This document shows, piece by piece, positions 15-60,326 of a stretch of 64,000 nucleotides of DNA. Numbering within the stretch: the stretch's first letter is position 1; each line of letters opens with the position of its first letter. The stretch is from positions 163,384-227,383 of IMG/VR virus record IMGVR_UViG_3300028888_000051; one strand, 5' to 3'. The translations under genes were made by a program, and so were the position numbers. The notes under the pieces were generated by a model. It made no database searches and was not told the origin of the DNA. It was given only the letters and a program-made list of their open reading frames with translations. Origin of the DNA: a virus (Duplodnaviria > Heunggongvirae > Uroviricota > Caudoviricetes).

Positions 15-2039
15 ATGAGTCGTGAACAAGAAAAAGATGCACGTAGAATGAATGATATTAAATTAGTTAAAAATATTTTTGGTGATGGACCTAATATGGT
101 ATATAATGATTTACATTCTTATATGGGTCAATTTGCTAATAATGAAAAAGCATATAAAGATGCTATTGAACAATTAAAACAAAATAAAGCTGAAAAAAAT
201 AAGGAAAATACAGATAAAGAACAAACAAAAACAGAAGCTTTTGATGATAATCAATTAGATAATGATGAAGTATGGTATTTAGAATATCAAACTAATATTC
301 CGGGAGAAACTTCTTATCTAAATAAAGCTTGGAGAGAAGCTGATTTACTTTCTGATAATTTAGATCAAGCTGCTAAATTTATTTCTCGTGATAATGCAAT
401 GACTGAATTACAAGAATTATATGCATCTAAACAAACTTCTTTTCCATTTAAACCGATAATTGGAGGAGCTTTTGAAGAATGTGGAGCATGTGCTACAACA
501 AATGCGAGTTTAGGTTCAGCTGTACAATATGTTAGTAATAAGAAAAAAGAAGAAAGTTTCGATGAAGAAAAATTAACTGAAGATCAAAGACTTGATGTAA
601 AAGATCGCTCAAAATTAAACAAAGAACTAATTAAAATAGCTAATATTAAAGATTTTGCTGGTAACGTTATTGGCAAAGCAGGTAAAACATTCCAAGAATA
701 TGCTGATAATAATGAATTAGGCTTTAATTATGATGAAAACGGTAATATAATATTTAACCAAAATGATAAAACATTAAGAGTTGCGGATGAATTGGCTAAT
801 CGTAGAATAGCTTTAGATTATGTTACTAATCAACCAATAGGTATGATTGACACTATTGGTAAAGTAAGAGATTTACATGGTAAACAAATTGGCTATTCAG
901 ATACTCGTGAAGCTGCAAAAAATCGTGGTATAGATTTAGATAAGCTTGACATAATATCTACTCATGATGATAATTGGCAATATACACAAAAAGCAGGTTC
1001 ACATTGGCGTAATGATGCAAATGCTATAAAATTTATGGATAAAGAAGGTAACATTAGAGATAAATATGCAGATGCTTGGCAAACTATAGCGAAAGATAAT
1101 AAAAAATTAAGAGATAATCCAGAATTATTACAAACAATGTTTGGTGGTTATTTCGAAAAAGGACAAATCTTAGATCCAAAATCATTTAAACAGCGTGTAT
1201 TAGAAATAAATGATACTTTTGGATTAGAATTAAATCCTGATGAACCAATGATTCCAAGTCAAATGAAAGCAGGTGGAAAACAACAGCAGGAATTTTATAA
1301 ATGGCGTGATAATTACTATAAACCTTTATTTAATGCTTCTCGTAGAAAAAATAAAGCTGCTGATAAAATTAATGCTGATAGAGAAAATTTTAGTAAAGAA
1401 CAAGATGAGTGGAGAGCTTCAGCTAATGATCGTGCTGAACAAGAACAAAGTATTCAGTATTTTATAAATGATATGCAAGATGCTAATAAACAATTTATGG
1501 ATGGTAAAATAAGTGGAAAAGATTTAAAAAATAAATTTATGTCCATTGCCTCAAATGATGCTATTCCAACATATATTAAAAGTAAATTAGCTAAAGATAC
1601 TTATAATGCATTCGCTTCTTATGATGAAGATATGGCTGATATGTGGAAAGAATTGAATAATCAATATTTTACTCAACAAGAATCTGTATTAACTGAAGAT
1701 GATTCTCCTGCTGATTTTGCAGATGGTCCTATATCATCAAATATGACTGGAACTATATCAACTACAGATCAAACAATAGATCAAACAGATACAATTTCAG
1801 ATGGAATAGATGATTATGGATTAGAAGAACCTAATATGAGTGGAGGAGCCAGTTTCGGTGATATAAATATTAATGCTGGGCCAGGAGAAAATGATGAAGC
1901 TCCTATTCAATCTACTGAAAACAAAAGAATTATAGATGTATTAGTAAATGAAAATGATCCATCTCAAATTAAATTAAAAATAAAAGATATGGATACAAAT
2001 AAAATTGAATTAAAAGATTTATCTGAAATTGATGTTTAA
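15..2039 (+). CDS. hypothetical protein (674 aa), D/N/K-rich
   Basis: long ATG ORF; no family motif recognised by eye. Confidence 0.5.
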   Translation: MSREQEKDARRMNDIKLVKNIFGDGPNMVYNDLHSYMGQFANNEKAYKDAIEQLKQNKAEKNKENTDKEQTKTEAFDDNQLDNDEVWYLEYQTNIPGETSYLNKAWREADLLSDNLDQAAKFISRDNAMTELQELYASKQTSFPFKPIIGGAFEECGACATTNASLGSAVQYVSNKKKEESFDEEKLTEDQRLDVKDRSKLNKELIKIANIKDFAGNVIGKAGKTFQEYADNNELGFNYDENGNIIFNQNDKTLRVADELANRRIALDYVTNQPIGMIDTIGKVRDLHGKQIGYSDTREAAKNRGIDLDKLDIISTHDDNWQYTQKAGSHWRNDANAIKFMDKEGNIRDKYADAWQTIAKDNKKLRDNPELLQTMFGGYFEKGQILDPKSFKQRVLEINDTFGLELNPDEPMIPSQMKAGGKQQQEFYKWRDNYYKPLFNASRRKNKAADKINADRENFSKEQDEWRASANDRAEQEQSIQYFINDMQDANKQFMDGKISGKDLKNKFMSIASNDAIPTYIKSKLAKDTYNAFASYDEDMADMWKELNNQYFTQQESVLTEDDSPADFADGPISSNMTGTISTTDQTIDQTDTISDGIDDYGLEEPNMSGGASFGDININAGPGENDEAPIQSTENKRIIDVLVNENDPSQIKLKIKDMDTNKIELKDLSEIDV

Positions 2040-2410
2040 TCTTTTTTAGCTAATTTTTTATTTTCAATCATTTTAGTAAAAATAAATTTACCTATGTCTG
2101 CTGATAATCGGCAGACATATTCTTTCTGTAAACCAATCGTACTATTTGTTTTTAAATTTTTTATATAAAAATATCTAGAATTATAACTTAAATTAAACAC
2201 ATCTTTTTTATCATTTTTAATAAAATTAAATTCTAAAAGATCTTTTAACTTTTTATGTAAAATTAATAAATTTGTATAATTACCTATATGAAGTGTATAG
2301 TCTTTTTTACGTAAAGCGTAAGTATCGAATTTAACTATACTGTGTTTAGATTTATCAGCTTTAGTTTCAACTATACTAATATCATAATCTTTAGCTGCAG
2401 CCATTGTCAT
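2036..2410 (-). CDS. hypothetical protein (124 aa)
   Basis: ORF with RBS-like aaaaaggag upstream on minus strand; TTCTATA motif (2436-2446, minus) 25 nt upstream. Confidence 0.45.
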   Translation of the reverse strand: MTMAAAKDYDISIVETKADKSKHSIVKFDTYALRKKDYTLHIGNYTNLLILHKKLKDLLEFNFIKNDKKDVFNLSYNSRYFYIKNLKTNSTIGLQKEYVCRLSADIGKFIFTKMIENKKLAKKD

Positions 2411-2563
2411 ATTAAAATCTCCTTTTTAATTTCATCATATAGAATATAAGTTTTAATAAAAAAGTAAATAATAATTTTTCCAAAGTTAAGAAATCGCCTA
2501 ACTACAAAGAATTTAGCTCGGCTAATCTTAGCTATACATTTTTTATTTTTAACAAAACAAAAA

Positions 2564-2614
2564 ATATAATATAATAATATATAATTAATAATATAATATA
2601 ATATAATATAATAA
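2564..2614. repeat. (ATAAT/ATATA)n microsatellite in intergenic region
   Basis: aatataatataataatatataattaataatataatataatataatataat read directly. Confidence 0.7.
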
Positions 2615-2740
2615 AAAAAAACAAAAAATTATTTTAACTTTTGCATTAACACTAACTTTGGCTTTTTATTTTTAAAATTTTTTAAATTTAAATATTTATG
2701 TTTTTTTGAAATAAGTTCTAAATTCTAAAAGGAGAAAATT

Positions 2741-3298
2741 ATGCAAATTTATGGTAATCCTAATTTATCTGATAAATTTTTTGTTTATTTAGAAGATAAT
2801 AGTATTAATTATGTAAGAGATTTTGAAACAGCTAAGGGTTATATTCAAAATCCAAATTATAAAAAATGGTTTGGAAAAACTTTATATTGTACAAATGAAG
2901 ATATAGTAAAAGCTTATGATGGTAAATTGTACTTAAAAAGCAAAGTTCCAGAAAATCCAAATGAAATAAAAATATATGATAATAAATCTTTTTTTATTAA
3001 TAATTGTAAAAAATATATTGAAAATACATTAAATGATTTGAGTATTGAATATGGTTATGTATCTTTTTATCAATTAATATCTTGGAAAGATTCAAAAATA
3101 TTAAAAAACAAACAATTAGCTGAAAAAATGTTAAATTATCGTGATAAATTATATAATTTCTATTCAAAAATATACAATAAACATAAAAAACAACTAGAAA
3201 ATACATCAGAATTATTAGATTTATCAAATATTTACACAGAATTTTTAGAAAATATTCCAAAATTTAAAAAAGTTAAAGAAAATGAAACAAACAATTAG
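2741..3298 (+). CDS. hypothetical protein (185 aa)
   Basis: ATG ORF with aaaaggag RBS; AGTTCTAAAT motif 18 nt upstream. Confidence 0.55.
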   Translation: MQIYGNPNLSDKFFVYLEDNSINYVRDFETAKGYIQNPNYKKWFGKTLYCTNEDIVKAYDGKLYLKSKVPENPNEIKIYDNKSFFINNCKKYIENTLNDLSIEYGYVSFYQLISWKDSKILKNKQLAEKMLNYRDKLYNFYSKIYNKHKKQLENTSELLDLSNIYTEFLENIPKFKKVKENETNN

Positions 3299-4184
3299 AT
3301 TATATATAATACCTACTTATAAAAATCCTTATGTAGATGAATATTATCTATTTGATCAAAATAATAAAAATACACTAGATGTAGTATGGTTAGATAATGC
3401 TTTAATTGAATTAAAAAATAATTATAATATTTTACAAACAGAAATTTGTGGGGGAGAAATAACAGTATTATCTGATTTTTATTTTAATATTTTGTTTCAA
3501 TTAATAAAAATGAATTGTAATAAAATTATTGTATCTACAAATTTTATAGATTTTAATAAATCTATAATAAATCTTTGTGATATAATTAATGTAAAATATA
3601 ATTTTAATGGTTATAGTAAATATAAAACTATTGTTTATAACAATATAAAGGCAGCAATAGCTGAAAATAAAATTATTAATTTAAAATCACTAGATATATC
3701 TTGTAAAAACAATCATAAATTAATTATTGAAGACTTAAATAGATTAAAAATAAAATCTTGGGAAATTATTCCATATCATCAATCTATTTATTCAAAAGCT
3801 ATTCCATTAAATTATACTGAATATGAAGAATTAATAAGAAAATATTTATTTTCAGCAAAAGATATGAAGTTTGCTTTTCAAAATAAACTTCAATTAGATG
3901 AAATCTTACCAATAGATAACTATAATATTAAAAATATTTATATTACACCGAATAATAAATTTGCCATAACAGAATTTAACAAAAACAATAAATTTAAATT
4001 CGTTGAATATGATAATTTATCTAATTTACAGAAAAAAATAGAAGAAATGGAAAATTTACGTGATAATTTTTGTTATAATTGTGATTCTAAATTACGATGT
4101 CTAGCAAATAGATTAATAAATTTAAATTATACTGGTAAAAGTTGTAGTGGTTTTAAAGATTTAATAAAATATTATAACAAATAA
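3282..4184 (+). CDS. hypothetical protein (300 aa); possible degenerate paralog of the radical-SAM family at 21.7-25.5 kb (CGGE motif, C-terminal Cys cluster, no CxxxCxxC)
   Basis: EICGGEITVLSDFYFNILFQLI resembles GGE[IF]F...LF segment of ORFs 21696-25451; C-terminal CYNCDSKLRC...CSGF; no N-terminal Cys triad. Confidence 0.4.
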   Translation: MKQTIRLYIIPTYKNPYVDEYYLFDQNNKNTLDVVWLDNALIELKNNYNILQTEICGGEITVLSDFYFNILFQLIKMNCNKIIVSTNFIDFNKSIINLCDIINVKYNFNGYSKYKTIVYNNIKAAIAENKIINLKSLDISCKNNHKLIIEDLNRLKIKSWEIIPYHQSIYSKAIPLNYTEYEELIRKYLFSAKDMKFAFQNKLQLDEILPIDNYNIKNIYITPNNKFAITEFNKNNKFKFVEYDNLSNLQKKIEEMENLRDNFCYNCDSKLRCLANRLINLNYTGKSCSGFKDLIKYYNK

Positions 4185-5195: not shown

Positions 5196-7061
5196 ATGAA
5201 ATTTAATATACGCCGGATAGAAATTGAAAATTTTAGAAGTATACAATCTAAGGTTACAATTAATATTAAACCTGGTCTATATTCTATTGAAGGTATAAAT
5301 AATGATGAAAAAACCAGTACGAATGGAGCGGGAAAATCTTCATTAATTTCAGCTTTATATTGGTGTTTAACTGGCAATGCTTTAACAAATGAAGCATTAG
5401 CCGATGATGTCATAAACGCTAAGGTTGGTAAGAATTGTAAAGTAAGTGTTTTTATTGAATCATTACAAGGTGATATAAAAATCACTAGGACAAGAGGAGA
5501 TTCTGAATTTGGTAATAATTTATTTCTTGAAATAGCAGATCAAGATTTAACTTGTCATAAAGTTGCGGATACTCAAACAAGAATTAATCAATTGTTTAAG
5601 ATTCCGTTTGATTTATTACATAGTACTATCATGATGACTCACGACATTAAGTCTGCTTTTTCTGAACTTACTCCACAACAACGTGTACAAACTTTAGAAA
5701 GTATACGTGATTATTCTATTTGGGATAAAGTTAGAGATGAAGCAAATAAAGATATCAAAATATATAACAAAGAAATACAGGAGCTTAATTTGAAATTAAG
5801 TAACATGAATGGTAGTAAGCAAACATATGAAAAAATGATTGCTGCTGCGGGAGAAAACTATAAAGTAGTTGTTAAATCTTTTGATAAAATCGAAATTGAT
5901 AATAAAATTAATAGTCTAATAGAAGAAAATAAAAACTATGCTATTGAAATAGCAAATTTAGAATCTGATATTAAGGAATTTAATAATTTTATTGAAAAAA
6001 ATACAGATAATTCTTTACAAAAAAGACTTAATGAGATTACTGATACTGCTAGCAATATTAAACTTTCACTTCAGAGTGCGGAATACGAACGGAAAGAGAA
6101 AGTAAAGGATATTGATATTATCAATGCTTGGTTTAAAAATGATAAATGTCCTACCTGCGGTCATTTATTGGATAGAACAGAAGAAGAAAAAGCTGTAAAA
6201 TCTAGCCATCGTGATGAATTAAATAAACAGCTCAATCTAATTGATGAAAAAGTAAAAAAATTAAATAATGATATTGCTTTAAAGCGAGAAGAGTGGGCAC
6301 AAGTAAATACTCAATTGAAGGTTAGTGAAAAAACTTTAACAGATTTTAGAGCTAAATTGAGTGAAAGTAATAATAAGATAAATATTCTTAAGAGTAAAGA
6401 GCTTGCAAATACGCGAGAGTTAGCTAAGCTTGAGTTAGAAAAAAATACTCACTCTTCTCAAGTAGATAAGTTAGACAAAGATATTATCTCTTATAAAAAA
6501 GAAATAGAGTCAATCTCAGCTGGCGAAGCTATCATCAATGAACAACTTAAGTTACTTGAAAATAAAAAAGAGTTATCTGATTACTTTTTTAAGTTACTTG
6601 GTAGTAAAGGTGAGTTAAGGCCTTATCTTTTAAAACAAGATATTTGTTATTTAAATAACTGTATGCAAACATATATACATCAATTTTTTGAAAATACTGA
6701 AGTTGAATTACGTTTAGAAGGTCCAAATATAGAGATTTTAATAAATAGTAATGGTATTAAGAAAAAAGTAACAAGCTTATCGGGTGGTGAAAAAAAGCGC
6801 CTTAATATTGCTATTCAACTTGGTCTATATGATTTAATACAAGCTACTTCACAAGTATGTTTTAATGTACTTTGGTTAGATGAAATTGAATCAGAATTAG
6901 ATCAAGCAGGTGTAAATCAATTAATTAATATAATTGAAGATAAATCTAATGATGCTGAAACTGTATTTTGGATTACAAATCATCCAAACGTTAAGGAAAG
7001 TATTACAAATAAAATTATATGTACTAAATCTTTAGGTGTAACAACTATTGAGGAGAGATAA
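5196..7061 (+). CDS. recombination endonuclease ATPase subunit, SbcC/Rad50-like (T4 gp46-like)
   Basis: N-terminal Walker A GAGKSS, central coiled-coil with CPTCG zinc hook-like motif, C-terminal LSGGEKKR signature and LWLDEIE Walker B. Confidence 0.8.
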   Translation: MKFNIRRIEIENFRSIQSKVTINIKPGLYSIEGINNDEKTSTNGAGKSSLISALYWCLTGNALTNEALADDVINAKVGKNCKVSVFIESLQGDIKITRTRGDSEFGNNLFLEIADQDLTCHKVADTQTRINQLFKIPFDLLHSTIMMTHDIKSAFSELTPQQRVQTLESIRDYSIWDKVRDEANKDIKIYNKEIQELNLKLSNMNGSKQTYEKMIAAAGENYKVVVKSFDKIEIDNKINSLIEENKNYAIEIANLESDIKEFNNFIEKNTDNSLQKRLNEITDTASNIKLSLQSAEYERKEKVKDIDIINAWFKNDKCPTCGHLLDRTEEEKAVKSSHRDELNKQLNLIDEKVKKLNNDIALKREEWAQVNTQLKVSEKTLTDFRAKLSESNNKINILKSKELANTRELAKLELEKNTHSSQVDKLDKDIISYKKEIESISAGEAIINEQLKLLENKKELSDYFFKLLGSKGELRPYLLKQDICYLNNCMQTYIHQFFENTEVELRLEGPNIEILINSNGIKKKVTSLSGGEKKRLNIAIQLGLYDLIQATSQVCFNVLWLDEIESELDQAGVNQLINIIEDKSNDAETVFWITNHPNVKESITNKIICTKSLGVTTIEER

Positions 7062-28674: not shown

Positions 28675-29259
28675 TTAAAATTCTTTTGTTTGTAACCAGT
28701 GTTTTCTACAAACAGATTTATACACTATATTATCTTTTTCGATTCCTATAACTTTATTTGAAGTATCTGGTTTTCTATTTACATAACGTAAATGATGTGT
28801 TGCTTTATTTGTACAATCTGGTTTTTCACATAACATTTCTATTTCTTGTATTTCATCTGCAAATTCAATAAAAGCTTTTGTACCTTCAAAAAGATTTCCA
28901 TTAATATCATTTTTTAGACCATATGCAATAATATTTATATTTTGTTGTTCAATTAACTTTGAAATAAAAATTACATCATCACGAGTAAAAAATTGTGCTT
29001 CATCAATAATAATTATTTTATCATAATTTATATTGTTTAATTCATTTTCAAAATTTTCAATATAATAAGCAGGTATTTTTTCTTTAATCAGTCTAGAAGT
29101 AGTATATCCCCAACCTTTTTGATTTCCATCTCGTGTATCTATAACTGGTTTTATTATAATAGGATTCATGTTTTTATATTTGTACATTTGATATGTTTTT
29201 ATTGCATTTACTGATTTACCTGCATTCATACATCCATAATAAAACTTTAATTTTGTCAT
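28675..29259 (-). CDS. tdk: thymidine kinase
   Basis: P-loop GCMNAGKS, DEAQFF, C-terminal zinc ribbon CEKPDC...CRKHW typical of type II TK. Confidence 0.85.
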   Translation of the reverse strand: MTKLKFYYGCMNAGKSVNAIKTYQMYKYKNMNPIIIKPVIDTRDGNQKGWGYTTSRLIKEKIPAYYIENFENELNNINYDKIIIIDEAQFFTRDDVIFISKLIEQQNINIIAYGLKNDINGNLFEGTKAFIEFADEIQEIEMLCEKPDCTNKATHHLRYVNRKPDTSNKVIGIEKDNIVYKSVCRKHWLQTKEF

Positions 29260-50991: not shown

Positions 50992-51210
50992 ATGTATGAA
51001 AAATTAATAGATCTTAAAGATAATTTTTTATTTTGTATTGCAACTACATTTGTTGGAATTTTAATTATGATAATAGCTAGTGTTATTATAATTATAACAC
51101 TTCCAATGTATTATTTATTTTGGATAAATCCAGTATTTGAAATTTATCAAAATTTAATTTGGAAAATATATGATATATTATTTCAAATTGGATCAGATGA
51201 TGAAATTTAA
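50992..51210 (+). CDS. small membrane protein (72 aa)
   Basis: TM segments. Confidence 0.4.
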   Translation: MYEKLIDLKDNFLFCIATTFVGILIMIIASVIIIITLPMYYLFWINPVFEIYQNLIWKIYDILFQIGSDDEI

Positions 51211-54200
51211 ATTAAGTCTTGCAATTCTTCAGAAGATTGATCTATAAAATTTGAATAATCATTTACTTTTTCTTTTATTTGATTAGAAGAAATATATTCA
51301 TATTGCGGAAAATCTGAATAATTAAGCTGTGCATTATATATAAAACCAACAATTACATCAGCTAAATCTTTTAATTCAGTAGTTCGAGTTACTTTTCCTC
51401 TATCAAAAACAAGAGCCGATAATTCTTTTCTGAGTTTTGGACATATTCCTACTTTTACCTGTCCTAATTCCATTAAAGTAGATGCATTAACATAAGGTTC
51501 AAGTTTTATATCGACTGAAACTTTATTTACTACTTCGAAACATCCCGATTTAGCTAAATTTTGTTGAAAAATTTCTCCATTCCATTGATCGCTTGATACT
51601 GTATGAATTAGCATATTACGTTCAATTACTAAATTTATTAAAAAAGTTTCTATTGCATGTATATCTATTTTATTTCTTGCATTCACAGCTATAAGTAAAT
51701 CAACTACATATATTGTTTCATTTTCTTTTTTATTTTCATTATAACGCCATTCTTTATGACCAATACATATACCAGCATCACATTGTCCAGAATCACCACC
51801 TCCTGCTAAATCTACATGACAATAACGTTTTGCAAAAGGAGCTCTTTTAAATATCCATCTACCATCTGTTAATTGTTCCCATAAATTATATTCATCTAGT
51901 AAAGCTAATATATCATTATTATCACTTATATCAGCTTTAATATTAAATTCTGGAGGCAATTCAGCATCTTCAATTTTTGATATATCTTTAAAGACTGTAC
52001 TGTTATCTACAGTTGTCATTCCTGCAATATCTTGAATAGACTGATCTAATTGTAATTCAAATTTTTCTTTATATACAGTTGGAACATTTATTACTTCACA
52101 TCCAATGGGTGGTATATAATTTCCATCTTCTAAAGCTTTCAATTCACCAGGATCGGTAAATATTTTAGAAGGAATTGAGCCATTACCAACAAGAACAGGA
52201 AATGTAGAGCCATCACCTAAAAACTCAGGATCTTCTTTAACTTCCCAAAGCCGAGGCATAAGAATAAGAATAGATGGATCATTTTTTGGCAATCGACGTA
52301 TGTATTCACCAATAGGACTATTTGTTGTACGAGCTGATGATACAACTGACTGAAATACTAAAGGACTTCCTTGAAAACGTGAACTAAAACGATTATCAAC
52401 TGAATTAAGAAGTGCCAAAGCTTCATCTACACCTTTTTCATTGATCTCATCCATAAAGCTATTTACTATATTCAAACCTATAGTATGAGTTATACCTGAA
52501 CCAGATGTAATAATAATATTGTCTGGAAAATATATCGTGCCTGTCGATTTTTCCACATTAAATGGTATTGGACAATGTGGATCCGATAAATCAAAATTTT
52601 CAAAAGATTGCATTCGCATAACTCTTTGAAAACACGGCATTGTTTCCATAAGTTTAACAAATGGTAATAAATTTGTTTCATAAACTTGTTTTAAAGTCAT
52701 AGAAATAATAACATTTGCTATTGTTGCATCACTATCTATATTAAATACTGCTCTAGGATAACGTAAACATAATATACGATATAAAACATATAAAAAAGCT
52801 TTACGAGCAATTGTTGACTTACCACAATTATGTGCAATTATACCAGCCTTTAAAGCAAAATTATGATTTTTTTCTGTAGTTATATCATAAACTTGTTGTT
52901 TACCTATATATTCTATAGAAATTATTTTATGATTGTATATTTTTTTACGCTTGTAATTTTCTTTAGCCCCTAAAGTAGGATCATACCAAGGCTCTCTTGT
53001 ATGAATAAATGCTAATAATTCAATGTATTTTTGATTTTCTTTTCCATGGAATCTTGCAATAGTAGCTAATACTTGTTTAGCCAATATAATTGCTTTTTCT
53101 TCAGGACTTTTGTTGGCTTTTAAATTACGCATATTTTCAGCCATTTTTTTAGAAATATTTCTAGCCTTTTCTGTTTTATTTCTTTCTATTAAAGTTTTAC
53201 TTGCTCTTTGTCTATATTCTTCACTATGTGGACCATTCCAACCGGCAAGCGAAGCTTTTCTTTGGTGTTCTGAATCTTGATGTAGTTTATTCCATCCAAT
53301 TTTTCTTTTTGCTTCTATCTCTTCATAATCTAAGCGAGCTTTATAGGTAATATGACTTTTTATTCCTTTTTGTCTTCTGTATTCTTTAAATTCATCACCT
53401 CTAATTGAAGCATTATATTCTTTCCATCTTCTACCTCCAACTTTAGCGTGATATTCCCAATGATATTTGTGAGGTATAATAGCTAAATTTTGAGGTCTAT
53501 CATCTAATTTATTAAAATTTTTATGGTGAACAACTTGTCCAGTTTTATATAAAGTTTTCCATTTACCTACTATTTGATATCTTTTTTCCCATTTTTCAGT
53601 AGTATTATTTTTTATTTGAATATATCCTTTATCACTAATTTTTGAATAATAAGGCATCATAGATTCACCAGATTTTAATCCAGTATCTATACTTTTCCAT
53701 TTATTTTTTCTTGTTAAAAATCTATGATCTGATGTACATTTAATTATTTCACCATTGTCTAAAGTTATTTTATACACATCTTTTATACCACTACAAAATA
53801 CATTAATTATCTTATCTGGTTCCCAAGTTTTATTAAATGTATTAAATGATAATACCCATTCATTATTATAATTATTAAGTAATTCATAAATTGTTTTATT
53901 ACCATTTAAAGTAGCTACTATCGTATCACCGGTTAAGCAACCAATACTTCCACCAAATATAGTTTTTCTTACTGGTGAGCCTTCCCTAAACATATATTCA
54001 AGTTGTTGTCGCCAATAAGGATATAATGTAGCATTACTATTATACATATAAAATTTACCAGATAAAAATTCTTCAATATTAGGCATAGGTCGTCTATATA
54101 AAAGATTATCAATTTGATCTGTTAAATCAGAATCCTGATTTGTTAATGTCAAATATAAAGCAATACGTTTTTGTATTTCTTGTTGCTTTTTAAATTCATC

Positions 54201-54344
54201 TGGCATATAATGCTCTTCATAATATGCTAAAATGTCTATAAAATCTTGTGACATAATAACATTTTGAAGTTCATTTGCATTATTAAATGAAACTATTGGA
54301 AGATTTTCTAATTTTTTTGCAATATCAGTAGGAAGTTGTTCCAT
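51207..54344 (-). CDS. terminase large subunit (T4 gp17-like) interrupted by an intein in the Walker A P-loop; extein about 674 aa
   Basis: extein junction restores GGSIG|CGKST Walker A; C-terminal nuclease motifs CHVDLAGGGDSGQCDAG; intein blocks CLTGDTIV ... VYDITTEKNHNFALKAGIIAHN|C. Confidence 0.85.
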   Translation of the reverse strand: MEQLPTDIAKKLENLPIVSFNNANELQNVIMSQDFIDILAYYEEHYMPDEFKKQQEIQKRIALYLTLTNQDSDLTDQIDNLLYRRPMPNIEEFLSGKFYMYNSNATLYPYWRQQLEYMFREGSPVRKTIFGGSIGCLTGDTIVATLNGNKTIYELLNNYNNEWVLSFNTFNKTWEPDKIINVFCSGIKDVYKITLDNGEIIKCTSDHRFLTRKNKWKSIDTGLKSGESMMPYYSKISDKGYIQIKNNTTEKWEKRYQIVGKWKTLYKTGQVVHHKNFNKLDDRPQNLAIIPHKYHWEYHAKVGGRRWKEYNASIRGDEFKEYRRQKGIKSHITYKARLDYEEIEAKRKIGWNKLHQDSEHQRKASLAGWNGPHSEEYRQRASKTLIERNKTEKARNISKKMAENMRNLKANKSPEEKAIILAKQVLATIARFHGKENQKYIELLAFIHTREPWYDPTLGAKENYKRKKIYNHKIISIEYIGKQQVYDITTEKNHNFALKAGIIAHNCGKSTIARKAFLYVLYRILCLRYPRAVFNIDSDATIANVIISMTLKQVYETNLLPFVKLMETMPCFQRVMRMQSFENFDLSDPHCPIPFNVEKSTGTIYFPDNIIITSGSGITHTIGLNIVNSFMDEINEKGVDEALALLNSVDNRFSSRFQGSPLVFQSVVSSARTTNSPIGEYIRRLPKNDPSILILMPRLWEVKEDPEFLGDGSTFPVLVGNGSIPSKIFTDPGELKALEDGNYIPPIGCEVINVPTVYKEKFELQLDQSIQDIAGMTTVDNSTVFKDISKIEDAELPPEFNIKADISDNNDILALLDEYNLWEQLTDGRWIFKRAPFAKRYCHVDLAGGGDSGQCDAGICIGHKEWRYNENKKENETIYVVDLLIAVNARNKIDIHAIETFLINLVIERNMLIHTVSSDQWNGEIFQQNLAKSGCFEVVNKVSVDIKLEPYVNASTLMELGQVKVGICPKLRKELSALVFDRGKVTRTTELKDLADVIVGFIYNAQLNYSDFPQYEYISSNQIKEKVNDYSNFIDQSSEELQDLI
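52827..53939 (-). mobile_element. intein (371 aa) with HNH homing endonuclease domain, inserted in TerL P-loop
   Basis: N-terminal Cys codon TGC at 53937-53939, block B TSDHRFLT, HNH VVHHKNFNKLDDRPQNLAIIPHKYHWEYH, terminal HN followed by +1 Cys (TGT 52824-52826); boundaries verified by codon counting. Confidence 0.85.
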
Positions 54345-54376
54345 TAATGTAATTATCCCTCTAAACTTTTTTAGAT

Positions 54377-54427
54377 ATTATATAGAACATAATCAAAAGT
54401 AAATATATAAAGTTCTATTTAAAATAG
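54377..54427. promoter_or_regulatory. divergent promoter-like region between terminase (minus) and tail-tube (plus) genes with GTTCTA motif on each strand
   Basis: TATAGAAC (54381-54388, minus-strand GTTCTATA) and AGTTCTATTTAAAATAG (54411-54427). Confidence 0.5.
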
Positions 54428-54526
54428 AAAAGTATTAACAGAAAAAAGAACTTAAAATAGCATTGTTCTAATTTATAAAGAATTAATCCCCTATTAAGAC
54501 ATTATATTTATAAGGAATAATAACAC

Positions 54527-55084
54527 ATGTTAAAGCCATTAAGTGCCGTTAGAAATCTTAAAGACCCATTAAAACAATTTGTATGTAACTTTAGTTTAGC
54601 ATTTCCGGCAAATAGCCCATTAAATCAATATATTGATACAGAAGATCTTATTTTACGTGCAACTAGTTATGGTTTACCAGGTTTTAAAGCTGATGAAACA
54701 GTAGTTACTTGGTCTGGTTTTGAAAGACATTATGGTGGTAAACAAACACGTCAAGGTAGTTGGCAATGTACAATTGTTGAAGTATGGGATGCTCGTATTA
54801 CAGAAATATTTAAACAATGGTTTAATGCATACCATCGTTATAAAGAAGGTACAATCGCATTATTAGAATCATATACAGGTACAGTTAATTTAGCATTAGT
54901 TGATCCTGATGTATATGATCCAAAACCAGATGGAATTGGTAAATATGATTTACGTTTATATGACGTATTTCCTGTATCTTGTGATATGCCAACTATTGAC
55001 GCTTCTAGTTCAGAGACTATTAATATTAATATTAATTTGAATTACAACTACTTCTTAGCAGGCAGTGAAATAGATGGTCAATAA
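54527..55084 (+). CDS. tail tube protein, T4 gp19-like (tentative)
   Basis: ATSYGLPGF...TWSGFERHYGGKQTRQGSWQCTIVEVWDARITEIFKQWF resembles gp19 ATALPAG...VGFMNRKINVAGDRTFDDWTVTVMNDEAHDARQKFVDWQ. Confidence 0.45.
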   Translation: MLKPLSAVRNLKDPLKQFVCNFSLAFPANSPLNQYIDTEDLILRATSYGLPGFKADETVVTWSGFERHYGGKQTRQGSWQCTIVEVWDARITEIFKQWFNAYHRYKEGTIALLESYTGTVNLALVDPDVYDPKPDGIGKYDLRLYDVFPVSCDMPTIDASSSETINININLNYNYFLAGSEIDGQ

Positions 55085-55114
55085 TTAGACTTTTACATTT
55101 TGTTATTCTTTTTG

Positions 55115-55146
55115 AGGGACTTGAAATATAGTCCCTTATTTATTTT
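55115..55146 (+). terminator. rho-independent terminator after tube-like gene
   Basis: AGGGACT tgaaatat AGTCCCT followed by TATTTATTTTT. Confidence 0.6.
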
Positions 55147-55217
55147 TACGGTTTTACATTTTTTATATTTAGTTCTATTATATATAAAGTTTAAATTAAT
55201 ATTGATAAAGTGAGAAT

Positions 55218-57167
55218 ATGAAAAATATTTGTAAAAATTGCGGCAAAGAATATGAATTTGAACCAAAGCATGGAACCTATAAATTTAAGTATTGTTCTCA
55301 AGAATGTAAACATGCCTTTGCGAAAAAAGATGAAGAACCACAATATAGGATTTGTGAATATTGTGGTAAAGAATATTGGTGGAGTAATTCGTTTAAAAAT
55401 TATAAAGAATATGTACATATAGATACAAAACGTTTTTGTTCTGCTGAGTGTAGTAAAAATTATAAAAAAGAAAAAATTAAACAAACATGTTTAAAAAAAT
55501 ATGGTGTTGAATATATTTCACAAACTGCAGATGTTAAAGAAAAAATGAAAAATGCATGGAAAAATAAATCAGAAAAAGAATTAAAATTGCGTCAAGAAAG
55601 TAGAAAGCAAACTAATTTAAAAAAATATGGTGTTGAACATGTATCTAAATTATCTGAAATTAAAGAAAAAGTAAAGCAAACAAATTTAAAAAAATTTGGT
55701 GCTGAATTTTATACACAAACAGATGAATATAAAGAAAAATATAAACAAACCAATCTTAAAAAGTATGGTGTAGAGCATTGTTCACAAGTACCAAAAATAG
55801 CAGAAAAAATAAAAAATAGTCTATTAAATAAATCTAAAGAAGAATGGGTTAAAATTATAGATAAGAGAAAGCATACTAATTTAGAGAAGTATGGTACAGA
55901 AAGTGCTTCTCAGAATAATGATATAAAACAAAAAGTAAAACAAACTAATTTAAAAAAATTTGGAAACGAAATAGCAATTCAATCAGATATTATACAATCT
56001 AAAATTAAACAAAATAATCTTGAAAAATATGGTGTAAAATATAGTATAGCATCTAATGAAGTACAAGAAAAAATTCGTACTACAAATTTGAAAAGATATA
56101 ATTATGAATATCCATTTCAATCTGAAGAATTAAGAAAAATTATGGAAGAAAATAGAAAAAAGACGAATCTTAAAAAATATGGTACAGAAAACATTAGTCA
56201 AGTTAAAGAATTTAAAGAAAAAGCAAAAAATACATGTTTGAAGAAATATGGTGTACCATATAATTGTATGACTGAAAATTGTTTAGAAGTAGGACATAGT
56301 ACTATATCTAAAATAAATTTGGCTTTTAAAAATAAATTAGATAAATTAAATATTCAAAATAAACTAGAATTTCATATTGATAAATGGAGTTATGATTTTT
56401 TATGTAATGATAAGTTTTTAATTGAAATTAATCCTAGCTATACACATAATTCATCTAATACTAAAAAACGATTGGAATTTATGAAGCCAAAAGATAAATA
56501 CTATCATTTTAACAAAACTAAATTAGCTTATGAAAATGGTTATCAGTGTATTCATATATGGGATTGGGATGATAAAGAAAAAATTTTAAATATACTTGTT
56601 GATAAAAAGAAAATATATGCTAGAAAATTAATATTAAAAAATGTATCAAATGAAGAATGTAATGAGTTTTTAAATTCATATCATTTACAAAATACATGTA
56701 AAGGACAAACTATTAGATTAGGTTTATATAAAGATAATGAATTGATACAATTAATGACATTTGGAAAAGCGAGATATACAAAAAATTATGAATATGAATT
56801 ATTAAGATTATGTACAAAAGCAGAATATAAAGTTATCGGAGGAGCAGAAAAATTATTTAAACATTTTTTAATTATATATAATCCAAAATCTATAATTTCT
56901 TATTGTGATAATTCAAAATTTTCAGGAGAAGTATACAAAAGATTAAATATGAATTTGAAAGATTATGGAACACCAAGAAAGCATTGGTATCATATAGAAA
57001 AAAATAAACATATTACAGAAGCACTTTTACTTCAAAGAGGTTATTCACAATTACACGGTGATAAAGAACATATAAAAGGTGAAAATAATGAAAAACTGAT
57101 GTTAGAAGCAGGATATGTAGAAATATATGATTCTGGTCAAAGTACATATGTTTGGCATAAAAACTAA
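55218..57167 (+). CDS. homing-endonuclease-like protein: N-terminal Cys4 zinc ribbons, about 10 tandem NUMOD3-like 23-aa repeats, C-terminal Vsr/DUF559-like nuclease domain
   Basis: CKNCG...CSQEC and CEYCG...CSAEC; repeats TNLKKYGVEHVSKLSEIKEKVKQ; C-terminal YDFLCNDKFLIEINPSYTHN ... NGYQCIHIWDWDD matches vDF...IE.DG..H...Gw.vlRf pattern. Confidence 0.55.
   Translation: MKNICKNCGKEYEFEPKHGTYKFKYCSQECKHAFAKKDEEPQYRICEYCGKEYWWSNSFKNYKEYVHIDTKRFCSAECSKNYKKEKIKQTCLKKYGVEYISQTADVKEKMKNAWKNKSEKELKLRQESRKQTNLKKYGVEHVSKLSEIKEKVKQTNLKKFGAEFYTQTDEYKEKYKQTNLKKYGVEHCSQVPKIAEKIKNSLLNKSKEEWVKIIDKRKHTNLEKYGTESASQNNDIKQKVKQTNLKKFGNEIAIQSDIIQSKIKQNNLEKYGVKYSIASNEVQEKIRTTNLKRYNYEYPFQSEELRKIMEENRKKTNLKKYGTENISQVKEFKEKAKNTCLKKYGVPYNCMTENCLEVGHSTISKINLAFKNKLDKLNIQNKLEFHIDKWSYDFLCNDKFLIEINPSYTHNSSNTKKRLEFMKPKDKYYHFNKTKLAYENGYQCIHIWDWDDKEKILNILVDKKKIYARKLILKNVSNEECNEFLNSYHLQNTCKGQTIRLGLYKDNELIQLMTFGKARYTKNYEYELLRLCTKAEYKVIGGAEKLFKHFLIIYNPKSIISYCDNSKFSGEVYKRLNMNLKDYGTPRKHWYHIEKNKHITEALLLQRGYSQLHGDKEHIKGENNEKLMLEAGYVEIYDSGQSTYVWHKN
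55482..56274 (+). repeat. in-frame tandem coding repeats (about 69-bp units, about 10 copies, some with insertions)
   Basis: protein-level repeats TNLKKYGVE..SQ..EIKEKVKQ read from translation. Confidence 0.7.
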
Positions 57168-57232
57168 AAGGTTTTACATTTCTATATAAATGATATATAT
57201 TTAATTAAGTATTAAATAGTGGCAAATATAAT

Positions 57233-57601
57233 ATGAATAGAATATATAATCTTGTACGTGATGATTTTAATTTAAATGATAGTAGTATTTTGTGTAGGCA
57301 AAGTACTTTATTTTGTATCTTAGAAGAAATAGCTACTAATGATTATTTTTCTGCTAAAGAATTTTTTATTAAACCTCAGGATGGTTATTATGGAAGTCGT
57401 GTCACATTAAGAAGAGAATCATGGGGTTATAAAATAGCAATAAAGCATAGTACTTTACCAGAAGATCCAACACAAACGTATAGACTTTATATGACTAGAA
57501 AAGAAATCGTAGAATTATATACATATTTTAAGTTATTTAATTTAAAAGTTATTAATCTTATTAATCATATTCATATTAATACTAGAGAGGCATATTTTTA
57601 A
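57233..57601 (+). CDS. hypothetical protein (122 aa)
   Basis: ORF; TTCTATATAAATG motif upstream. Confidence 0.45.
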   Translation: MNRIYNLVRDDFNLNDSSILCRQSTLFCILEEIATNDYFSAKEFFIKPQDGYYGSRVTLRRESWGYKIAIKHSTLPEDPTQTYRLYMTRKEIVELYTYFKLFNLKVINLINHIHINTREAYF

Positions 57602-58440
57602 TGAAAAATTTAAGAGAAATTGCTAATGATATAGCTGATAATCTAGGCATTTTAAGACCGACAGATAAACTTTTAAACAAAAATAGTTTATGGTATGATG
57701 TTTTATATAATACTTTAAAAACTTTAAATAAAGAATTTTCTGAAGAACTTGAATATTCTGAAACTATTGTTTTTGATAGTGAAACTTTTGAAGAAAAATG
57801 TATATTAGAAAAAGAAACAGATTATCCAGTTTTTGATGAATATTTATGTTTTTTATGTGGAATATATTTTTATTTACGTTATACAGCTCAGCCTTATGCT
57901 AAAGCTTGGGCTGAATATAATAATGAATTAGAAAAAAGAAAAGGTCCAAAAAAGCTTTGCTTGCAAGAAAATCATCTCTATAAGCATGGTACTAAACTTT
58001 ATTATGTTTCAGAATGGACATCTGGTAATGAAAAGGAGCTTGATGTTGAGGTATTTGAACAATGTAAGAAACCAAATGAAAATATTTATGAAGATACATT
58101 GTTTGATGATGATGTACAAATTAAAAGTGTTGAAGATTTTGAAAAATATATTGGAGACAGAAAGCTTGTTGATTTAGGTTTACTTGAAAATACAGTATAT
58201 AAATTCAAAGAGGTTCCAGGATTTGGACGTTGTACAAATAAAGTGCTTGTATATACATGTAGTTATGATAAAGATGATCTATGGAGAGCAAAATTAGAAA
58301 AACAAGAAATGCTTGAAATATTAGAAAAATGTAAACCTTTAATTACATCATATATTCAAGAGCTTTATTCAAAAAATGATGTGAATTATAAAGATTGGGA
58401 AAACGTACTTAAGGAGATAAATAAATGGATAAAAAAATAA
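57601..58440 (+). CDS. hypothetical protein (279 aa)
   Basis: ORF, TAATG overlap. Confidence 0.5.
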   Translation: MKNLREIANDIADNLGILRPTDKLLNKNSLWYDVLYNTLKTLNKEFSEELEYSETIVFDSETFEEKCILEKETDYPVFDEYLCFLCGIYFYLRYTAQPYAKAWAEYNNELEKRKGPKKLCLQENHLYKHGTKLYYVSEWTSGNEKELDVEVFEQCKKPNENIYEDTLFDDDVQIKSVEDFEKYIGDRKLVDLGLLENTVYKFKEVPGFGRCTNKVLVYTCSYDKDDLWRAKLEKQEMLEILEKCKPLITSYIQELYSKNDVNYKDWENVLKEINKWIKK

Positions 58441-58892: not shown

Positions 58893-59129
58893 ATGACAGA
58901 ACAAGAAGAAATTGAAGAAAAAATTAAACAAACAGCTATTAGAAATAATTTTGATTTATCTGATAATTTACATAAAATTGCTAAAGGTAAATTAATGTTT
59001 TTTGGAACAAAAATGTGGATGAAATGTCCATGTGATCCAGATAGTGATAGAGCTTGTATAAGTAAACATTGTAAACAAGATATTGAAAATGATGGTATTT
59101 GTCATTGTCAGTTATATAAAAAAAGATAA
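58893..59129 (+). CDS. small Cys-rich protein (78 aa)
   Basis: CPCDPDSDRACISKHCKQDIENDGICHCQ; GAGTTCTATG motif upstream. Confidence 0.45.
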   Translation: MTEQEEIEEKIKQTAIRNNFDLSDNLHKIAKGKLMFFGTKMWMKCPCDPDSDRACISKHCKQDIENDGICHCQLYKKR

Positions 59130-59231: not shown

Positions 59232-60326
59232 ATGGCTAAAAAAATAGAAAAAAAAGTTCAAAAGGAAAATTCTCGTGTAACTTCAGCATTATCATTACTT
59301 CGTAAAAAATTTGGTGATGATGCAGCAATGACTTTTAATGACATAGGTGTTACAAAAGTAGATGTAATTCCTTCTGGTTCTTTAAAATTAGACAAGATAT
59401 TAGGAATTGGTGGATGGCCACGTGGCAGAGTTACGCTTTTATGGGGTGATTATAGTTCTGGTAAATCAACGATATGTTTACAAGCCGTAGCTAATGCACA
59501 AAAAGAAAATTTAGTTTGTGCTTATGTTGATATGGAACATGCTTTAGATCCTATTTATGCTGAAGCACTAGGTTGTGATATGTCTGAATTAATTTTACTT
59601 CAACCAGATGGTGGTGAACAAGCACTAGAAGCTATTAAATTATTAGCACAAGAAAAAGCAGCTGATTTAATTATTCTTGATTCAATTGTTGCATGTGTAC
59701 CAGCAAGTGAATTAGATGGTGAATTATCTGATATGAATATTGGACGTCAAGCAAAGTTATTTAGTTCATTTTTTAAACAAGTTACTCCAGCACTTGAAAT
59801 AGCAAATTGTGCTTTAATTTGTACAAATCAAGTTCGCCAAGCTCCAGGTAAATATGGAGATGCATCTGTTTTACCTTGTGGAGAAGCTCAAAAATTCTTT
59901 GCTTCTATTATTTGCCGTACTCGTAGACAACAATCTCAAAAAGAAGAAAGTAAAGAAGGTGATATTATTGCAAATCAAATTAGTGTAACTACAGAAAAGA
60001 ATAAATTGGCCCCTCCATTCAGAAAAGCAGAATTAATGATTTATTATGGTAAAGGTTTTTCAGCAGATAATGAAATGTTAGATTTAGCTGTAGAATTTGG
60101 TATATTAACAAAAGCTGGAGCATTTTATAAATATAAAGGAGAAACTATTGGACAAGGATCTGCTAAAACTAAAATTTGGTTAGAAGAACATAAAGATATT
60201 AAAAATAATATAATGGAACAAGTTAAAGAAATTCTTATGAAGCCTAATAATGAAAAAATGATTTTAGAAAAAGAAGCAGAGTCAGAGTTAAATTATGATC
60301 CGGATACAGGTGAAATAATAGAATAA
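59232..60326 (+). CDS. recA: RecA-family recombinase (bacterial RecA-like; functional analogue of T4 UvsX)
   Basis: Walker A GDYSSGKST, LLQPDGGEQALE, ILDSIVA Walker B, CTNQVRQAPG loop-2-like region. Confidence 0.85.
   Translation: MAKKIEKKVQKENSRVTSALSLLRKKFGDDAAMTFNDIGVTKVDVIPSGSLKLDKILGIGGWPRGRVTLLWGDYSSGKSTICLQAVANAQKENLVCAYVDMEHALDPIYAEALGCDMSELILLQPDGGEQALEAIKLLAQEKAADLIILDSIVACVPASELDGELSDMNIGRQAKLFSSFFKQVTPALEIANCALICTNQVRQAPGKYGDASVLPCGEAQKFFASIICRTRRQQSQKEESKEGDIIANQISVTTEKNKLAPPFRKAELMIYYGKGFSADNEMLDLAVEFGILTKAGAFYKYKGETIGQGSAKTKIWLEEHKDIKNNIMEQVKEILMKPNNEKMILEKEAESELNYDPDTGEIIE

Follow-up and report, generated by a model that had tools for sequence, protein, structure and literature searches.

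Hef of phage U5 is encoded between nrdA and nrdB, and according to a passage in the review of T4 mobile elements it cleaves nrdB (PMC2988022). Hef-type enzymes have been placed in the Vsr-like EDxHD family of homing endonucleases (Taylor et al., 2011; PMC3239194), of which I-Bth0305I (PDB 3R3P) is the prototype (PMC3239194). Jumbo-phage fusions of a Mom domain to a restriction endonuclease (Mom-REase) have been read as momylating and restricting (Iyer et al., 2021); Mom of phage Mu (PDB 8BV8, PF25680) is itself a stand-alone, tRNA-dependent GNAT enzyme of ~240 amino acids (aa) that modifies DNA at adenine N6. No paper joining the Hef-type and Mom-REase readings was found in the literature searched. 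The gene described here lies in a stretch of 64,000 nucleotides, the window, which covers positions 163,384 to 227,383 of IMG/VR record IMGVR_UViG_3300028888_000051; the source is an uncultured phage of ~227 kb whose relatives are described as jumbo phages. Located at 55218..57167 on the plus strand, the gene is an ordinary further member of the known and very abundant Hef family, and is probably a selfish, free-standing homing endonuclease gene (HEG).

Domain organization of the HEG protein

The open reading frame (ORF) is intact, begins with ATG and encodes 649 aa; coordinates and length are exactly those of the original prediction, which had been made from the letters of the DNA. Its product, the HEG protein, aligns end to end with homologues and has no paralogue elsewhere within the 64-kb window, and short ORFs on the opposite strand are low-complexity by-products of AT-rich DNA. 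The modules follow one another in the order two zinc ribbons, ten DUF7487 repeats, a Vsr-like nuclease and a Mom-like GNAT domain. The motifs quoted in the original prediction, YDFLCNDKFLIEINPSYTHN and NGYQCIHIWDWDD, are both found in the protein. The N-terminal part (aa 5-30 and 46-78; 55230..55451, plus strand) holds two zinc-ribbon-like clusters, each of the form CxxC...CxxxC. All eight Cys residues of the two predicted Cys4 ribbons were located (C5, C8, C26 and C30; C46, C49, C74 and C78), and both clusters are kept in the consensus of 74 homologues. PHROG families named 'homing endonuclease' or 'HNH endonuclease' span the zinc ribbons and the repeats: 'homing endonuclease' families match at E 2.5e-88 and 3e-44, and phrog_1271, an 'HNH endonuclease', covers aa 2-112. 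A scan of the HEG protein against NCBIfam returned nothing, and neither the protein nor the family alignment found a meaningful match in the PDB by sequence or profile search; the links to solved structures given below come from fold comparison, with U5 Hef as an additional sequence bridge.

The ten DUF7487 repeats (aa 90-362; 55485..56303, plus strand) form a putative DNA-recognition array. Pfam DUF7487 (PF24308) matches aa 85-362 (E 2.6e-55, 188 bits, gathering cut-off 27) and is matched by 74 of the 75 homologues too. A hidden Markov model (HMM) made from the repeat units recovers exactly 10 copies, in agreement with the ~10 tandem 23-aa repeats first proposed; the array extends over aa 90-362 and not, as proposed, over aa 89-352. 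The units begin at aa 90, 132, 155, 178, 220, 243, 266, 289, 316 and 339, with a period of 23 aa broken by two 19-aa inserts and one 4-aa insert, and share the signature T-N-L-K-K-Y-G-V-E...Q....K.K. On average they are 43% identical at the amino acid level and 59% at the nucleotide level, compared with 35 +/- 5% nucleotide identity for control in-frame 69-mers of the same gene. The 69-bp repeat expected at the DNA level is thus visible as identity above the controls, but Tandem Repeats Finder (TRF) recognizes only 2.4 copies of it; the repeats are therefore real but ancient duplications. Ten units, a number initially regarded as unusual, lie within the range of 4-15 carried by family members (120 homologues).

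The repeats had been likened to NUMOD3, the module of GIY-YIG and HNH homing endonucleases. This identity fails at the HMM level. NUMOD3 (PF07460) has no Pfam match in the HEG protein at E<=1 and none at E<=10 in nine single repeats and the whole array, where DUF7487 is the sole match, and it is absent from the 25 most often matched families listed for the 75 homologues. NUMOD3 modules are likewise short, repeated, basic, helical and associated with phage nucleases, yet have no detectable sequence relationship to DUF7487 repeats. By analogy, the array likely plays the part that NUMODs play as modular DNA-binding units of nucleases. It is strongly basic (61 K/R vs 36 D/E; net charge +25), and in the AlphaFold2 (AF2) model its last two units are helical, with one long and one short helix each. 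DUF7487 repeats are probably a nuclease-associated modular unit that binds DNA. A TALE-like recognition code was considered and set aside, as the repeat-variable positions show a conservation of 0.44 between orthologues against 0.63 for the scaffold, with no clear code. No paper in the literature searched mentions DUF7487.

The nuclease domain (aa ~363-460; 56304..56597, plus strand) is a Vsr-like, EDxHD-type variant of the PD-(D/E)xK fold. In the AF2 model of aa 355-649 (predicted local distance difference test, pLDDT, 93; predicted template-modelling score, pTM, 0.87), an alpha-beta-beta-beta-alpha-beta core occupies aa ~365-450, with D393 on strand 2 and E403 on strand 3; aa 316-470 were also modelled separately (pLDDT 85), because the C-terminal domain masked the nuclease in the first fold searches. 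Across 75 sequences D393, E403, P406, H410, Y429, H430, K433, D449 and W450 are invariant, and position 405 is either N or D. Three of these residues, D393, H410 and D449 (75/75), correspond to D51, H69 and D97 of the EDxHD motif of Vsr. The nuclease segment of U5 Hef shows sequence similarity to 3r3p (E 0.005), and the Ala substitutions of the crystal construct, D196A and H213A, stand opposite the D and H of Hef. Through the U5 Hef alignment, D393, N405 and H410 are equivalent to D196, N208 and H213 of I-Bth0305I, and the spacing D393-x11-N405-x4-H410 is identical to D196-x11-N208-x4-H213 (I-Bth0305I positions from PMC3239194). The motif itself reads IEINP..TH in the HEG protein as against the canonical IEYDG..WH. 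There are further differences between the two enzymes: I-Bth0305I is intron-encoded, carries NUMOD2/HTH (helix-turn-helix) modules N-terminal to its nuclease, lacks a Mom-like domain, and has an acidic first motif residue where the HEG protein seems to have Asn. The Vsr-like nuclease of the original prediction is borne out, but it had been assigned the whole of aa 360-649; it takes up only aa ~363-460, and the last ~185 aa are a different domain.

This C-terminal domain (aa ~465-649; 56610..57164, plus strand) has a GNAT fold in the AF2 model of aa 355-649 and resembles Mom. Its best Foldseek match is Mom of phage Mu (8bv8; E 2e-7, 203 columns), behind which many acetyltransferases rank. Pfam Mom (PF25680) matches aa 471-593 when the fragment is searched alone (E 4.8e-4, 20.3 bits; gathering cut-off 27.1). 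The same family is also matched by 15 of the 75 homologues (best E 1.1e-6), and for one full-length homologue, P0083, the combination PF24308+PF25680 is precomputed in the database. When the domain alignment is compared with 120 Mom homologues by hhalign (P 0.001 over 123 columns), H489, R530, D564, Y573 and W590, conserved in 74-75 of the 75 family members, pair with Mom H58, R111, D149, Y159 and W181, all of which are important or essential in a 2026 study of Mom (PMC13219725). The Mom-specific insertion is also recognizable, as the conserved H.IT.N...R.G. Momylation depends on R111, S124 and R151 (PMC13219725). In the alignment S124 faces a variable position, E544 (E/S/Q/N), and R151 falls in a gap beside the invariant K567, without a clear partner. 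Among close homologues, identity to the query is 0.68 in the Mom-like domain, 0.57 in the nuclease and 0.51 in the repeats. The domain appears to be an integral and strongly constrained part of the enzyme, with adenine binding or flipping, DNA modification and self-protection as candidate roles.

Relationship to U5 Hef and abundance of the family

Searches of GenBank phages by tblastn with the HEG protein matched 405-420 records, all at <60% identity, with up to 15 copies of matching genes per phage genome. The matched genes are annotated 'Hef', 'Hef-like homing endonuclease' or 'homing endonuclease', and in two Acinetobacter phages 'putative nuclease/acetyltransferase protein'. Hef-like homing endonucleases have been annotated in T4-related, Vi1-like, Campylobacter and jumbo phages, and in Dickeya phage LIMEstone1 a Hef-like gene adjoins the tail-tube gene, just as in the window. 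Among the matches is the nrdA-hef-nrdB record of phage U5 (AY262133.2; E 8e-17). By blastp, U5 Hef (ABI48935.1) matches the nuclease and the first half of the Mom-like domain (aa 399-548) with E 1e-21, and the zinc ribbon and repeats with E 0.002; the two proteins are ~37% identical over 160 aa.

U5 Hef has the same module order, namely zinc ribbon, DUF7487-type repeats, DUF559/Vsr-type nuclease and Mom-like domain. It is shorter, at 544 aa, and carries a single zinc ribbon, ~2 repeats and also an HTH, whereas the HEG protein lacks the HTH but carries two zinc ribbons and 10 repeats; the single Cys cluster of U5 Hef aligns with the second cluster of the HEG protein. Both genes are free-standing, intergenic and placed beside a conserved gene, but the locus differs, being nrdA/nrdB for U5 Hef and the tail-tube gene for the HEG. 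Hef is reported to cut HEG-containing as well as HEG-less DNA.

An exhaustive HMMER search found the combined nuclease and Mom-like module in 14,132 cluster representatives, 9,445 of them at E<=1e-10. In the best 150 of the 14,132, the module is almost always a complete C-terminal unit preceded by an N-terminal region of variable length. An architecture that had been thought unusual is thus the typical one, present in ~14,000 clusters.

Insertion site and mobility

The HEG lies between a tail-tube protein gene (54527..55084, plus strand, 185 aa) and a gene of 122 aa (57233..57601). The tail-tube protein of the window has no Pfam match of its own at E<=0.01; among its 50 homologues, those at 49-73% identity carry Phage_TTP_2 (PF23849), which supports the earlier description of the upstream gene as tail-tube-like. 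Related loci were gathered through protein homologues and then through the contigs encoding them. A related-locus search of IMG/VR by the tail-tube protein found none, and megablast of 51-61 kb against 50,697 GenBank phages gave no match; there is thus no close cultured relative among the latter. A DUF7487 gene directly follows the tail-tube gene in four lineages (the window, L003/L004, L005/L006 and L008-L010), and the HEG is absent from this place in four others (L007, L012/L013, L014/L015 and L016/L017), so that relatives lacking the gene at the homologous locus, a check the original prediction had called for, do exist. Its intergenic position, its sporadic presence among relatives and its homology to U5 Hef all agree with the proposal of a free-standing homing endonuclease gene.

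Two pairs of loci define the ends of the insertion. The window and L007 share DNA homology across the terminase and tail-tube genes as far as 3 bp past the tail-tube stop codon, and again from a 78-aa gene 3.8 kb farther downstream. Between L003 and L014 homology continues for ~60 bp past the tail-tube stop codon; L003 then has a 3.8-kb insertion, made up of the HEG and a 507-aa gene, in place of 138 bp in L014. The 507-aa gene (12132-13655 of L003) belongs to no known family and is possible cargo moving with the HEG. L007 also has a 122-aa gene after its tail-tube gene, of the same length as that in the window, yet the two are unrelated.

In the tail-tube tree, HEG-occupied and empty lineages occur in each of the two main clades. 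The tail-tube proteins of L003 and L008 are 80% identical and their HEGs only 41%, while between L003 and the window the HEGs are 63% identical and the tail-tube proteins 56%. The disagreement between the two phylogenies points to horizontal movement into one site, and both the incongruence and the fixed site are predicted by homing. No Rfam family is found in 50.5-60.5 kb, and hence no group I intron was detected there. The neighbouring terminase gene is interrupted by an intein that has an HNH-like motif, so that the tail-tube gene is bracketed by two mobile elements. Clusters of HEGs near essential genes have been described (PMC10448857).

Probable homing and its alternatives

As a selfish HEG of the Hef family, the gene would act through each of its modules. 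Zinc ribbons and basic repeats would together bind a long DNA target, and the Vsr-like domain would use D393, N405, H410 and D449 to cut the HEG-less genome of a co-infecting phage. The cut probably falls within or close to the 3' end of the tail-tube gene, or in the spacer, and the homing target may lie in the neighbourhood of the tail-tube gene. Repair by recombination, with the HEG-bearing genome as template, would then carry the gene into the recipient along with its promoter and adjacent DNA.

Several observations weigh against this interpretation. Comparison of L003 with the window and L008 showed no co-conversion tract at the tail-tube 3' end. Neither DUF559 (PF04480) nor Vsr (PF03852) of Pfam matches the HEG protein at E<=1; U5 Hef itself reaches DUF559 (E 0.012) and MTES_1575 (E 1.8e-4), each under its cut-off. 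Judged by spacing, N367 (N in 74 of 75 sequences) appears to stand where the motif has its first acidic residue, E25 in Vsr and E170 in I-Bth0305I, and the nearly invariant E384 could be substituting for it. The case for DNA binding by the repeats comes only from their charge, their helicity and their association with nucleases. Finally, simple homing leaves the Mom-like domain, the best-conserved part of the protein with its active-site residues kept, unexplained.

The Mom-like domain is given a function if the protein is a modification-restriction module aimed at the host or at rival phages, in which this domain marks the phage's own adenines and the nuclease cuts unmodified foreign DNA. The PA5oct genes discussed by Iyer et al. 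are annotated as Hef-like endonucleases and match the HEG protein; the counterparts of Mom H58, R111, D149, Y159 and W181 are invariant, and no region of the protein is more conserved than the Mom-like domain. Such a role is nevertheless unlikely. The gene is distributed as selfish homing genes are: it occupies or is missing from a single intergenic site, its phylogeny conflicts with that of the tail-tube gene, and one genome can hold many diverged copies. A long sequence-specific array of zinc ribbons and 10 repeats would also limit modification to rare sites and so leave the genome as a whole unprotected. Moreover, the essential S124 of Mom stands opposite the variable E544, the Pfam Mom score stays under its gathering threshold, and the defence and restriction-modification models of PADLOC gave 0 families at E<=0.1 for the HEG protein.

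Homing could also be combined with built-in immunity, if the Mom-like domain covalently modifies, or flips and tightly holds, an adenine within the site that the enzyme itself recognizes. Genomes bearing the HEG would then be spared and naive genomes cut. The conserved Mom active-site residues and the Mom-specific insertion H.IT.N...R.G would fit, as would the constant fusion of nuclease and Mom-like domains in ~14,000 clusters and the finding that double-stranded DNA is the substrate of Mom, with the adenine flipped (2026 study, PMC13219725). S124, by contrast, is not conserved, Hef reportedly cuts DNA that contains the HEG too, and in U5 Hef an N seems to replace the D149 equivalent and the resemblance weakens over the domain's second half; an arrangement of this kind is very unlikely. 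Catalytic activity of the Mom-like domain as such, whether modifying or flipping and holding an adenine in the enzyme's own target site, is unlikely. That the gene is decayed or domesticated, or encodes a structural repeat protein (e.g., a fibre) without nuclease activity, is hardly credible: it does adjoin structural genes and contain tandem repeats, but the reading frame is undamaged and can be aligned with homologues over its full length, no catalytic residue varies, the repeats form basic helices attached to a nuclease, and no structural-protein family is matched in Pfam, PHROG or NCBIfam, a fibre-type assignment of the repeats being the outcome that the original prediction had singled out as contrary to it.

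Features surrounding the HEG

A hairpin (55113-55138) with its T-run forms a terminator-like element at 55113..55148 (plus strand), the sole such site in 54300-57700 (3.4 kb; 0.4 expected). Hairpin and T-run follow the tail-tube stop codon in 9/9 compared loci, HEG-bearing or empty, and the terminator is therefore that of the tail-tube gene and lies outside the mobile gene. The terminator that had been described as flanking the HEG thus exists, but belongs to its neighbour.

The original prediction also gave the gene a promoter-like motif of its own. A sigma-70-like match is present at 55153-55181, but matches of this kind are about as frequent as chance predicts in DNA so rich in AT (37 found; 30.4 +/- 4.8 expected), and the claim of a sigma-70 promoter was rejected. 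The -10-like hexamer of this match overlaps the promoter-like phage motif TTCTATTATA (55173..55182, plus strand), 45 nucleotides (nt) upstream of the HEG start. This motif is enriched: TTCTAT(W)4 sits 36-64 nt upstream of 10 of 76 genes, where 1.4 are expected. A second copy, TTCTATATAA (57180..57189, plus strand), lies 53 nt upstream of the gene at 57233..57601, and in HEG-less relatives the same TTCTAT(W)4 motif precedes the next gene. The longer form (A/T)GTTCTAT(W)4-6 is a candidate phage-specific promoter element, kept at the same position in related phages. The genes bearing the motif start at 5196, 8203, 15627, 48381, 50290, 55218, 57233 and 59232 on the plus strand; those on the minus strand are 28675..29259 and 51207..54344.

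The latter is the large terminase gene (51207..54344, minus strand, 1045 aa), with its intein at aa 149-506 (Pfam Intein_splicing, E 1.7e-22) and, within the intein, an HNH_3-like motif (E 3.7e-4). The terminase is uninterrupted in L003 and L010 (668/673 aa); in L007 it comes in two parts of 780 + 458 aa and has an intein whose ORF includes a DUF7487-like repeat, and in L008/L009 a 415-aa HTH+DUF7487 gene lies between the terminase pieces. Beside the terminase gene of L010 (554-2162, minus strand) is an insertion sequence (IS)-like pair of TnpB (Cas12f1-like_TNB) and resolvase genes, at the place where L008/L009 have other insertions.

Downstream of the HEG, the gene at 58893..59129 (plus strand) encodes a Cys-rich protein of 78 aa (CPC...C..HC...CHC) with no Pfam match; its DNA is 85% identical between the window and L007 (12039-12252), compared with ~69% for the flanking conserved genes. 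A few kb downstream of the HEG are also genes for a RecA/UvsX-like recombinase (RecA_N, RecA_C; 59232..60326, plus strand) and for a GapR-like DNA-binding protein (15491-15748 of L001). A phage-encoded recombinase is the kind of function on which homing relies. Elsewhere in the window, positions 2001-4000 have a GC content of 17-19%, against ~25-30% in the remainder, and a GC skew near zero.

Implications for the Hef family

The HEG marks a boundary between conserved DNA, which comprises the terminase and tail-tube genes, and variable DNA. Arrays of 4-15 DUF7487 units are a candidate modular DNA-recognition scaffold tied to phage nucleases. One and the same family has been given two unconnected readings in the literature, as Vsr-like homing endonucleases (Taylor et al., 2011) and as Mom-REase fusions (Iyer et al., 2021), and both domains are seen here in one protein that behaves like a mobile gene. 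Since Mom has recently been shown to be a tRNA-dependent DNA-modifying enzyme, modification of DNA by Hef-type nucleases is a concrete, testable question. If the Mom-like domain does modify or hold an adenine in the target site, the enzyme would be a homing element that cuts others and marks self within one polypeptide, possibly using aminoacyl-tRNA as Mu Mom does.

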